Shown piece after piece: positions 28,918 through 30,350 of a DNA stretch of 64,000 nt. Within the stretch, counting starts at the first letter, position 1, and each line of letters starts with the position of its first letter. Under the pieces are notes generated by a model that was not told the DNA's origin, searched no databases, and saw only the letters and a list, made by a program, of their open reading frames with translations. Origin of the DNA: Candidatus Moraniibacteriota bacterium (lineage in GTDB: Bacteria; Patescibacteriota; Minisyncoccia; Moranbacterales; UBA2206); the NCBI GenBank assembly GCA_049303795.1, contig JBAQNM010000004.1, forward strand, positions 8,623 to 72,622, written 5' to 3'. The position numbers were made by a program, and so were the translations under genes.

Positions 28918-28931
28918 TCAATATTATTTAG

Positions 28932-29002
28932 TCGGGCTGCTGAGAATCGAACTCAGTCTACATCCACCCCATGGACGCGTACTACCGGTATACTACAGCC
29001 CG
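28932..29002 (-). tRNA. tRNA-Pro (GGG)
   Basis: CGGGCTGTAGTAT..ATGGGGT..TTCGATT..CAGCCCGA. Confidence 0.8.
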
Positions 29003-29126
29003 CGGAAGTACTTTTATTTTTGCTGGATCCAGAAGTTTTTTATAAGACATGACATGCAGCTTAAACCTATTCGTTCCTGTAAATCTACCTTGATATAGTT
29101 ATCCATGCTTTATAATATAGTAAATG

Positions 29127-29213
29127 CGGAGAGAGTGAGATTCGAACTCACGGTACCTTTTACAGTACGACAGTTTTCAAGACTGTTGCCTTAAACCACT
29201 CGGCCATCTCTCC
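29127..29213 (-). tRNA. tRNA-Ser (TGA)
   Basis: GGAGAGATGGCCGAGTGGTTTAAGGC..CTTGAAA.. with a long variable arm, then GAGTTCGAATCTCAC..TCTCTCCG. Confidence 0.85.
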
Positions 29214-29235
29214 AAAATTAAAAACTTCAAATACA

Positions 29236-29365
29236 TGCAGAGAGGCAGGGATTCGGTCACGCATAAGTTTTCTTGCGAAAATTTGCTCGACCCCGACTCG
29301 CGCCTTCGCGCTCCGTCTTTCGAATCCCTCCACAAGCCAAATCGTTGATTTGCTCCTCTCCTTAT
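29236..29365 (-). other. tRNA-Ser-like structured remnant / candidate small RNA
   Basis: The minus strand begins GGAGAGG and ends GAATCCCTGCCTCTCT (tRNA-Ser-like ends). Internally it has an 11-bp inverted repeat GGAGGGATTCG/CGAATCCCTGCC and GC-rich hairpins. It is GC-richer than its surroundings. Confidence 0.3.
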
Positions 29366-29380
29366 TCACTTTGTTCACGG

Positions 29381-29467
29381 CGGAGAGGCAGGGATTCGAA
29401 CCCTGGAACCCGATTAAAGGTTAACACGTTAGCAGTGTGCCGCTTTCGACCACTCAGCCACCTCTCC
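29381..29467 (-). tRNA. tRNA-Ser (GCT)
   Basis: GGAGAGGTGGCTGAGTGGTCGAAAGC..CTGCTAA.. with a long variable arm, then GGGTTCGAATCCCTG..CCTCTCCG. Confidence 0.85.
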
Positions 29468-29581
29468 AAAAATAACATATAAATACTAACAGCTAGCGCT
29501 AGACTTGTAAACCCTTGAAATATTTTGTTAAATTCAGTTTAATATGTTAATATTATATTAAATTAAATTAACTTCAAAAAA

Positions 29582-30163
29582 ATGTATATTGAAAGAGTTA
29601 AAAAGTCGGACGAAAACGAAAATGAACTGCTTCTTGAAAAAGATTGGGAAAATCCAACGCTCCTAGAAACATCACAAGAAGAATTAATTGAAGAGTATTC
29701 TCGCGACACAATAATGCATTGGGAAGCACCCGAATTTGAAATGCTTGAAAAAAACAAGAAACGCCTAGCCTATGCTGCTTTGATTCTTTTGGGGATAATT
29801 GGCTATGCTTCTTTTACAAATAATCCGATTCCGGCAATCGTTTTTGTGCTTATTGGAATTGTTGCCTATATGAACTCTCAAAAAGCTCCTCGTCATTTAA
29901 ATTTCAGGATAATCCCTGAGGGAATAATTGCCGGTAAAGAATTATATGAATTTGATAATATGCATTCTTTTTGGATCTTTTATGATCCTCAGTATAAAAA
30001 AATAATCAGTCTTCACACTAAAAGCTACCTCTCACCATTCGTTCATATTCCAATTCATAATCAAGATCCTGTAGCAATTCGCAAAATTTTACTCCGCCAT
30101 ATACCAGAAATGAAACAAGATCATAATTTCGCTGAAATAGTGGAAAGGTTTTTTGGAATATAA
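29582..30163 (+). CDS. Hypothetical membrane protein
   Basis: 193 aa with an acidic N-terminus and two TM helices (LAYAALILLGIIGYASF; PIPAIVFVLIGIVAYM). Confidence 0.55.
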   Translation: MYIERVKKSDENENELLLEKDWENPTLLETSQEELIEEYSRDTIMHWEAPEFEMLEKNKKRLAYAALILLGIIGYASFTNNPIPAIVFVLIGIVAYMNSQKAPRHLNFRIIPEGIIAGKELYEFDNMHSFWIFYDPQYKKIISLHTKSYLSPFVHIPIHNQDPVAIRKILLRHIPEMKQDHNFAEIVERFFGI

Positions 30164-30252
30164 ATTAAAAGTCAGTCCTTACGGAAATATATTTAAAAAT
30201 ATTTATTTAGTTGCAAAATCAATTCTTGTATGCTAGAAATACAGAGTTAACT

Positions 30253-30325
30253 GTCTTCGTAGCTCAGTGGATAGAGCGTCTGGTTGCGGTCCAGAAGGTC
30301 GCAGGTTCGATTCCTGCCGAGGACA
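30253..30325 (+). tRNA. tRNA-Arg (GCG)
   Basis: GTCTTCGTAGCTCAGTGGATAGAGCG TCTGG TTGCGGT CCAGA..GGTTCGATTCC..CGAGGACA. Confidence 0.75.
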
Positions 30326-30350
30326 CAAAAAAGTTAATAATTTAAAAAAA

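Follow-up and report, generated by a model that had tools for sequence, protein, structure and literature searches.

According to a finding ascribed to Bosl and Kersten in 1991, the RtT RNA of Escherichia coli arises by processing of the tyrT transcript and has a link to the stringent response. The E. coli tyrT-tyrV region (NC_000913.3 1286709-1287500) carries four RtT units, which match the Rfam model RF00391 at 133-138 bits. In the Rfam consensus, the closing stem of RtT, GGGGAAGGAU...AUCCUUCCCC(CACCACCA), consists of the tRNA-Tyr 3′ end and its complement, placed around a GC-rich multi-hairpin core. The link to the stringent response has also been drawn more recently (bioRxiv 10.1101/2024.07.17.603846). 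Here we describe an element of similar layout in Candidatus Moraniibacteriota (Patescibacteria, or candidate phyla radiation, CPR). The element is 124 nt long and lies between two tRNA-Ser genes at 29361..29238 on the minus strand of the window, i.e., the whole 64-kb stretch of contig JBAQNM010000004.1 (assembly GCA_049303795.1) that was analyzed and whose positions are used throughout. It is a copy of a large modular family of structured elements that adjoin tRNA genes in Patescibacteria. The family is new, is absent from Rfam 15, and is of the tRNA-linked-repeat kind exemplified by RtT. We found no description of it in the literature when searching by topic and by sequence string.

RtT and the CPR element both lie in tRNA operons, after or between tRNA genes of the same strand. 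In both, the final ~19 nt of a tRNA are directly repeated as the 3′ end, and a complementary 5′ arm closes a GC-rich multi-hairpin core. Both occur as tandem or multiple copies. The left-arm junction of RtT, GGAUGAGAA, resembles a minority junction of the CPR family, G(G/A)UGAGAAAGAC, seen in five loci. The two are unlike in sequence. RF00391 has no match in the window, and our model of the CPR family (R1) scores at most 6.6 bits on RtT; its best matches in the E. coli region fall mostly on the RtT copies, at a non-significant 4.5-6.6 bits. The RtT core is ~90 nt long, versus 65 nt in CPR. RtT is associated with a single tRNA (Tyr) in enterobacteria and has an encoded CCA, whereas the CPR family is associated with 14 tRNA types and has several interchangeable cores, optional modules and, usually, a hairpin between tRNA and arm.

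Williams is said to have described in 2002 how genetic elements integrate in tRNA genes, with attL/attR repeats and a T-loop sublocation. The element resembles such sites in that the tRNA sequence from T-loop to 3′ end is directly repeated, one copy belonging to an intact tRNA and the other being a displaced 3′ fragment. It differs in that only ~125 bp separate the repeats, there is no integrase or cargo, the site is present in an extra inverted copy, and the core is folded with RNA-type covariation. Like REP/BIME, Correia elements, miniature inverted-repeat transposable elements (MITEs) and Rickettsia palindromic elements, the members of the family are short, structured, multi-copy, intergenic, geneless and patchy in occurrence. 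Unlike these small palindromic repeats, they have arms copied from the local tRNA instead of fixed terminal repeats, and their copies within one genome are diverged, with compensatory changes. Small RNAs are also expressed in linkage with tRNAs in plant tRNA-snoRNA dicistrons, in gammaherpesvirus tRNA-miRNA units and in engineered tRNA scaffolds. There, as would be the case for the element, a passenger is joined to a tRNA-like structure and its ends are set by tRNA-processing enzymes. These systems use a whole tRNA or its fold, whereas the element mimics only the acceptor and T-stem helix and its passenger replaces the T-loop.

Structure of the element

Both ends of the element derive from the intact tRNA-Ser(GCT) gene that directly precedes it (29467..29379, minus strand; ARAGORN, Rfam). 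The 3′ end is a sense arm, CGAATCCCTGCCTCTCTGC (29255..29237, minus strand), which repeats the tRNA 3′ end beginning at C56 and includes the acceptor 3′ strand (29239-29245) and the discriminator G (29238). It is identical at 18/19 positions to the last 19 nt of the tRNA (29398..29380), the source copy of the repeat, and the two copies are 143 nt apart. The 16-mer CGAATCCCTGCCTCTC occurs exactly twice in the window, compared with 0.16 occurrences expected by chance. The 5′ part (GGAGAGG ... GAGGGAUUCGAA) corresponds as a whole to the tRNA 3′ end in reverse complement and takes in the T-loop bases. It begins with GGAGAGG (29355..29361, minus strand), an antisense copy of the acceptor 3′ strand, which in the fold is the 5′ strand of a 7-bp acceptor-like stem with CCUCUCU (29245..29239); the first pair is G-U. 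GGAGAGG is kept in L011 and L041 (L numbers denote fetched comparison loci or contigs, from species genomes or metagenomes). The T part of the antisense arm, AGGGAUUCG (29321..29329, minus strand), is the reverse complement of T-loop nt 56-60 and the T-stem 3′ strand. It pairs with 29247-29255 in a T-stem-like stem of 9 bp, P1 (AGGGAUUCG/CGAAUCCCU). The antisense arm is split by hp1 (29332..29353, minus strand), a hairpin of nine positions in the fold (GCAA.AUCA / UUUG.CUUGU). This is an optional module of the family, AGCAAGC..GCUUGCGU, found also in seven further loci. In L011 it is a perfect 9-bp hairpin, reached via one-sided, pair-improving changes.

The arms enclose a conserved core of 65 nt (29256..29320, minus strand), supported by model R1, covariation and the pattern search described below. 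In minus-strand order, the core comprises AAA (29318-29320), a short helix P2, GAC/GUC (29315-29317 / 29295-29297), the hairpin hpA, GCGC-GAAG-GCGC (29300-29311), a GGG junction (29292-29294) and the hairpin hpB (29256-29291), which has 15 bp, a bulged A and a GCAA loop and ends in GUGAC. A GGA / GA internal loop lies between P2 and hpA. Every core feature of the family is thus present in the window copy: AAAGAC, the GGA/GA loop, hpA, GAGUC-GGG, hpB with its bulged A, and GUGAC. Model R1, whose training alignment included the window copy, scores 90.7 bits on 29247-29329. It finds no second copy in the 64-kb window, and only one of the 12 window tRNAs has an adjoining element.

An earlier note on this DNA, made from the sequence alone, had read the segment as a GC-rich element on the minus strand with ends from tRNA-Ser and an interior that is not a cloverleaf. 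The sequence is as it described and the ends are indeed those of tRNA-Ser(GCT). The interior occupies the place of the T-loop, with no D, anticodon or variable arm; of a tRNA's helices, the element has only the acceptor-like and T-stem-like stems. Some details of the note need adjustment. The 11-bp inverted repeat is perfect over 9 bp only (AGGGATTCG / CGAATCCCT) and reaches 10/11 when extended over a G-G mismatch. The two inner hairpins are present, the second one having been quoted as TTTTCTTGCGAAAA, the plus-strand reading of minus-strand UUUUC-GCAA-GAAAA. The structured unit is also slightly shorter than the 29365..29236 first given for it. Folding of the minus strand, one of the checks proposed at the time, gave -48.3 kcal/mol (z = -3.1), and 2/200 shuffles were as good. 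The plus strand is about equally significant, so energy alone cannot choose the strand. GC content is 0.52-0.54 in the element, versus 0.17-0.36 in the nearby spacers.

Comparison with known families

ARAGORN calls no tRNA or tmRNA at 29236-29365. The Rfam check suggested earlier (tRNA, tRNA-Sec, introns, tmRNA) found nothing in the element at the gathering score, and only chance-level partial matches at E <= 10. Neither Rfam nor ARAGORN matched a tmRNA, SRP RNA, RNase P RNA, group I/II intron or known small ribozyme in the window or in the variant loci. The 5′ half is not collinear with a tRNA; it is an exact reverse complement that covers nt 56-65 and extends further (AGGGAUUCG). Had the 5′ half of a tRNA been retained, the sequence would be CAGGG-UUCGAA and would lack the extra A that is seen. 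In other loci, the antisense arm is a contiguous reverse complement of 16-21 nt of the tRNA 3′ end.

Several other identities were considered and rejected. SRP RNA, the K-turn, the hammerhead and 5S RNA were weighed by eye; a GNAR-like loop, a GGA/GA loop and a three-helix shape are insufficient, and no Rfam model supports them. Open reading frames (ORFs) of 72 and 52 aa over the element run into the tRNA and are broken in L011. A phage or plasmid origin finds no match in viral contigs, phage records or plasmid records. TIGR-Tas arrays, brought to mind by the two-strand arms, have far smaller units, and the arms of the element always match the adjacent tRNA. CPR tRNA genes are known to carry group I introns at anticodon position 35/36 (PMC13011429); this is another site, and no intron model matches. 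A MITE or REP-like repeat is at odds with arms that vary per tRNA, with diverged paralogous copies and with a single copy in the 64-kb window.

A structured core conserved across Patescibacteria

A pattern of 21 bases common to the first three copies, that of the window among them (GAAAGACGGAGCGCGNNGGCGCG), was searched in species-representative genomes. It gave 45 loci, 41 in Patescibacteria and four that are chance matches in GC-rich genomes. The lineages with the core include Paceibacterota, Saccharibacteria and Moranii-, Nomura-, Yonath- and Kaiserbacteria. An hpA-variant pattern retrieved 104 metagenome contigs. Model R1 found 67 and 126 copies in the two sets of fetched loci, many of them diverged and often several within a few kb. 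The core is exactly 65 nt long in ~35/40 copies, with the consensus arm..UCG-AAA-GAC-GGA-GCGC-GNNG-GCGC-GA-GUC-GGG-(15-bp hairpin, bulged A, AGCA-like loop)-GUGAC-arm.

The helices are maintained by compensatory changes. Among 36 genome copies, 93.5% of alignment cells are paired, and 16/31 pairs show compensatory changes (10/15 in hpB). Among 114 distinct metagenome copies, in an alignment that was fitted to the model and hence leans to the model structure, 91.3% of cells are paired and 29/31 pairs show such changes. By helix, the pairing in this set is 98.5% for P2, 100% for hpA and 97.1% for hpB, compared with 31-52% in slid controls. RNAalifold predicts P2, hpA and hpB independently. Conservation amounts to 88-100% at the GGA/GA loop, the GGG junction and the bulged A, which suggests that these invariant core loops are likely to bind a factor. 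G-U pairs outnumber A-C mismatches 45:5 in the core helices. The tRNA-sense strand is therefore the folding strand, and the core most simply folds on it as RNA. The covariation proposed for checking at homologous loci is thus found in the interior of the element at more than 140 loci, in many CPR lineages and beside many tRNAs. A decaying duplicate, for which the earlier note would have expected neither conserved structure nor an Rfam match, is contradicted by the structure and its covariation, even if the Rfam match is indeed absent. Paralogous copies have diverged and yet keep their pairs by compensatory changes (L031/L036, L038/L048). Judged by this divergence, the copies in one genome are old, with no recent burst.

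A second type of core occurs with the same tRNA-derived arms (..GAAGNCC - AU-rich hairpin - GGUGUAC - NGANCCUGUAAGGN..; GGUGUAC...CCUGUAAGG). It was seen in eight loci, in the same arrays as the first, and has no Rfam match. It is sometimes nested inside a type-1 core (L026, L046). Many copies also have a small hairpin, AG(U/C)GUACUC(A/G)CG, inserted in the sense arm right after CGAA (seven loci, L018 and L037 among them). Arrays that lack an upstream tRNA (four loci) have a conserved promoter-like block, AAAAAGTTCG(N)GCAAAG..TA(T/G)(A/G)AT, 60-250 nt before the first module.

Association with tRNA genes

The tRNA context was examined for 148 cores, with tRNA types as called by ARAGORN and a same-strand tRNA end sought within 140 nt upstream. 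By this measure, 77/148 cores are directly downstream of a same-strand tRNA, of 14 types in all: Leu, Ser, Trp, Ile, Lys, Glu, Arg, Tyr, Val, Gly, Thr, Met, Cys and one called as 'tRNA-Stop'. Unlike the small palindromic repeats named above, about half of the copies are strictly associated with tRNA 3′ ends. In 38/148 cases, the core is immediately followed by the 3′ end of the upstream tRNA as a direct repeat, which starts from C56 in the T-loop and has a median length of 19 nt. Another 7/148 cores come after a repeat of tRNA nt 1-24, with the intact gene of that tRNA downstream (e.g., L085, L088), and ~50/148 have other contexts or are nested. Usually, a tRNA is followed by a terminator-like hairpin that varies in sequence, then by the antisense arm, the core and the sense arm. 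Tandem units are present in L054, L031 and L041. Viewed from the tRNAs of the fetched loci, a biased sample, 74/219 are accompanied within 150 nt by an antisense copy of their T part. In these 74 loci, the antisense arm leads into a structured core, with a recognized type-1 or type-2 signature in 51; for the remaining 23, the core was judged from 10 examples.

Some cores lack arms (L085, L088 and three further loci). They follow a hairpin with a G(U/A)(G/A)GGA loop that is preceded by the copy of tRNA nt 1-24. The intact tRNA gene is 40-200 nt downstream. This layout is a 5′-side mirror image of the 3′-linked one.

Recurring neighbors of the family are housekeeping genes only (MiaA, RecG, IF-2, ParB, ClpC, TrxB). 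The commonest is miaA, which encodes the tRNA isopentenyltransferase and was found at ~19/145 fetched loci. Its adjacency is probably due to synteny with particular tRNA genes and not to a functional link.

Presence and absence among relatives

Genes of the window match metagenome-assembled genomes named Candidatus Moraniibacteriota, and the neighboring protein of 193 aa has an identical counterpart under that name. Two contigs of metagenome-assembled genomes (L001, L002) carry an identical locus. In L011, where the neighboring protein is 66% identical, a homologous element lies between the same two tRNA-Ser genes. It has U-A for C-G at a T-loop position, matching its own tRNA, and a 27-nt AT hairpin after hpA. 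The antisense arm thereby tracks the local tRNA, reading UUCG in the window and UUUG in L011, where the tRNA has UUCAAAU. In L016 the core is clamped by GGCAGGGAUUCG/CGAAUCCCUGCC and follows tRNA-Ser(GCT) and a terminator-like hairpin, with no GGAGAGG and no hp1. In L013, tRNA-Ser(GCT) and tRNA-Ser(UGA) are 45 nt apart with no element between them, and L063 and L009 also lack it. Thus, the element is conserved but not fixed. Comparison of empty and filled sites (L013 with L011; L062, L063) gave no insertion boundaries because the spacers could not be aligned.

L003, a Logan contig of the same population, matches the window at 99.6% identity over 29235-30289. The mismatches scatter through the sense arm from 29254 on, and the downstream sequence is unrelated DNA with a sigma-70 gene. 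The junction is either a recombination between element copies or an assembly chimera at the repeat. The sense arm there (L003 2640-2680, window 29235-29256) reads CAAATCCCTCTCTCTCCGCA, resembling the 3′ end of another tRNA-Ser.

The relatives without the element have features of their own at these sites. Other tRNA-trailer repeats, GCCTTCGCTAAAGCTTCGGCGGATAAATCCGC, occur in L013 (1040-1085, 920-960) and in L063 (700-790), in tandem in the latter, and L009 has GC-rich tandem repeats at 1800-2080. A small GIY-YIG ORF lies between the two tRNA-Ser genes in L009 and L063. In L063, a 5′ fragment of tRNA-Ser is present upstream of the intact gene.

Possible origin and function

The reading we favor, at about even confidence, is that the element is an RtT-like passenger RNA cassette, co-transcribed with tRNAs, released by the enzymes that process tRNA ends, and spreading through repeated tRNA ends. 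It is close to the 'tRNA-derived small RNA' that was one of the three identities offered in the earlier note. A consensus scan places a promoter-like site, TTTACA-17-TAGTAT with TG, at 29511..29483 on the minus strand, upstream of tRNA-Ser(GCT). The element is followed on the same strand by tRNA-Ser(UGA) (29126..29213) and tRNA-Pro(GGG) (28931-29002; both ARAGORN, Rfam), and no terminator-like site is predicted between the tRNAs on the minus strand of this locus. The site at 29483..29511 is likely to be the start of a tRNA-Ser(GCT)/element/tRNA-Ser(UGA)/tRNA-Pro transcript, and the element would be transcribed from it as part of this precursor. Since the closing stem copies the tRNA acceptor/T-stem helix with the same discriminator, the tRNA-end enzymes would excise the element. 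RNase P, in acting on the following tRNA, together with RNase Z and the CCA-adding enzyme could free a stable RNA of ~124 nt and leave the neighboring tRNAs unharmed, by analogy with E. coli RtT. The invariant unpaired bases of the core may then serve as the binding site of a trans-acting factor. At the DNA level, the cassette might spread and persist by events at repeated tRNA 3′ ends, such as duplication, recombination and correction of the arms. Such events would account for the patchy presence in relatives, the tandem copies and the rearrangements at arm junctions. Templated correction of quasi-palindromes during replication is one possibility for how the arms come to match the local tRNA.

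Several points weigh against this reading. The acceptor 3′ strand is missing in L011 and the acceptor 5′ strand in L016, so a complete tRNA-like end is not required. Copies that lack arms or lie in 5′ partial tRNAs (L085, L088) are unexplained by the processing logic. At most other loci, a terminator-like hairpin with a T-run separates tRNA and element, which could be reached there only by read-through or from a promoter of its own. The arm helix P1 has 73-85% of its cells paired and a G-U:A-C ratio of 17:12, and looks more like a decaying inverted DNA copy than a selected RNA helix. The metagenome covariation carries the lean toward the model noted above. No integrase, transposase, HUH or other gene recurs near the ~145 loci as a candidate partner protein. 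Finally, transcription and processing are steps that we infer.

Some of the same observations would be better accommodated by a miniature DNA element, integrative or mobile and non-autonomous, that has a folded att site and is inserted at the T-loop by a recombinase or HUH enzyme encoded elsewhere. We consider this doubtful, although it is the main alternative. The unit of tRNA 3′ end, hairpin, antisense arm and core would represent either a small circle in a single turn or a single strand that is folded. The sense and antisense arms would rebuild the double-stranded site from T-loop to 3′ end, as in integron attC or CTX-phage attP, so that the tRNA is restored and the original 3′ end displaced. 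As at tRNA integration sites, direct repeats (19-21 nt) reach from T-loop to tRNA end. Arrays alternate sense arm, hairpin, antisense arm, core and sense arm (L054, L031, L041). Such a mobile element explains this sense/antisense/sense triple and the arrays better than a passenger cassette does. Also in line with it are the variable presence between relatives, the many tRNA targets, the breakpoint within the sense arm of L003, the matches at contig ends, the insertions nested in loops of other modules (L026, L046), the copies in 5′ partial tRNAs and the lack of an RNA-type G-U bias in P1. Against it, no integrase, transposase or HUH gene recurs near the loci, and viral contigs, phages and plasmids gave no match. 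Copies in the same genome are old and diverged, with compensatory changes, and not near-identical. The arms fit each local tRNA, unlike a fixed attachment site, and sequence conservation is lacking in the hairpin that separates tRNA and arm. The sense-strand G-U bias of the core fits RNA, though single-stranded DNA could also produce it.

A bolder proposal, which we think unlikely, would make the family a new mobile cassette that colonizes tRNA genes with arms for which the target serves as template. In a folded single strand, the sense and antisense arms together would reconstitute the duplex from T-loop to 3′ end, or they would guide an enzyme to it, and insertion in the T-loop would restore the tRNA. 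Type-1, type-2 and other cores would ride the same mechanism, and RtT would be a distant representative of one general, unrecognized class. Arms made by such a templated mechanism would represent a new form of target-matched insertion.

The element might instead be a regulatory RNA useful to the host, acting on its own neighboring tRNA. The 3′ half of tRNA-Ser, or of the tRNA-Ser precursor, would be the pairing partner of the antisense arm, which the sense arm would mask; the RNA would thereby sense or modulate tRNA maturation, folding or 3′-end state. In favor of this, as many as 21 nt of the local tRNA are complementary to the antisense arm, which changes in step with that tRNA, each copy has stayed structurally intact over long times, and RtT has been tied to the stringent response, as cited above. 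A role of this kind is improbable given that close relatives with the same tRNA lack the element (L013, L063), that a single tRNA of the 12 in the window has one, that the arms are often short or decayed, and that armless copies exist.

That the core acts as a small ribozyme, freeing itself from tRNA transcripts by self-cleavage or self-processing, is very improbable. Its compact three-helix fold with invariant GGA/GA, GGG and bulged A, and its location in multi-gene RNA precursors, would suit one; no Rfam ribozyme family matches even at E <= 10, no hammerhead-like core is visible by eye (no CUGAUGA), the other small-ribozyme families having been covered by the Rfam scans, and the idea is purely structural speculation. 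The two remaining identities from the earlier note, a decaying tRNA-Ser(GCT) pseudogene disrupted by a random insertion and a tRNA-Ser with an intron in its T-loop, have tRNA-like ends and the group I introns of CPR tRNA genes (at 35/36; PMC13011429) in their favor, but are excluded for practical purposes because the supposed insertion is the conserved and selected part, with covariation at more than 140 loci and beside 14 tRNA types, while GC is held at 0.52 in a genome of ~33% GC, the D and anticodon arms are absent, the 5′ arm is a reverse complement and not a tRNA 5′ half, an intact tRNA-Ser(GCT) lies directly upstream, and no group I/II intron model matches.

The family is large and previously unclassified: a 65-nt motif with invariant unpaired bases and very strong covariation is present in hundreds of copies across Patescibacteria, and an arm-and-core unit adjoins about one third of the tRNA genes in the (biased) fetched loci. 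RtT, an orphan RNA unexplained since 1991, gains a structural counterpart in a very distant lineage, suggesting a general route by which passenger RNAs become attached to tRNA genes. Should the core bind a factor, the family would offer a handle on CPR RNA biology. For annotation, the units seem to cause contig breaks and can pass for tRNA pseudogenes, and they add a non-coding layer to genomes that are thought to be minimal.

Additional observations

Many matches to the family lie within ~250 nt of a contig end, including those in L018, L023, L024, L026/L057, L037, L043 and L054. L057 and L026 appear to be opposite sides of a single broken locus, and the element repeats seem to break CPR assemblies. 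Elsewhere in the AT-rich window, the tRNA-Arg at 30253-30326 (plus strand) has the anticodon GCG and not the usual bacterial ACG, and the same is seen in all related Moranbacteria loci.

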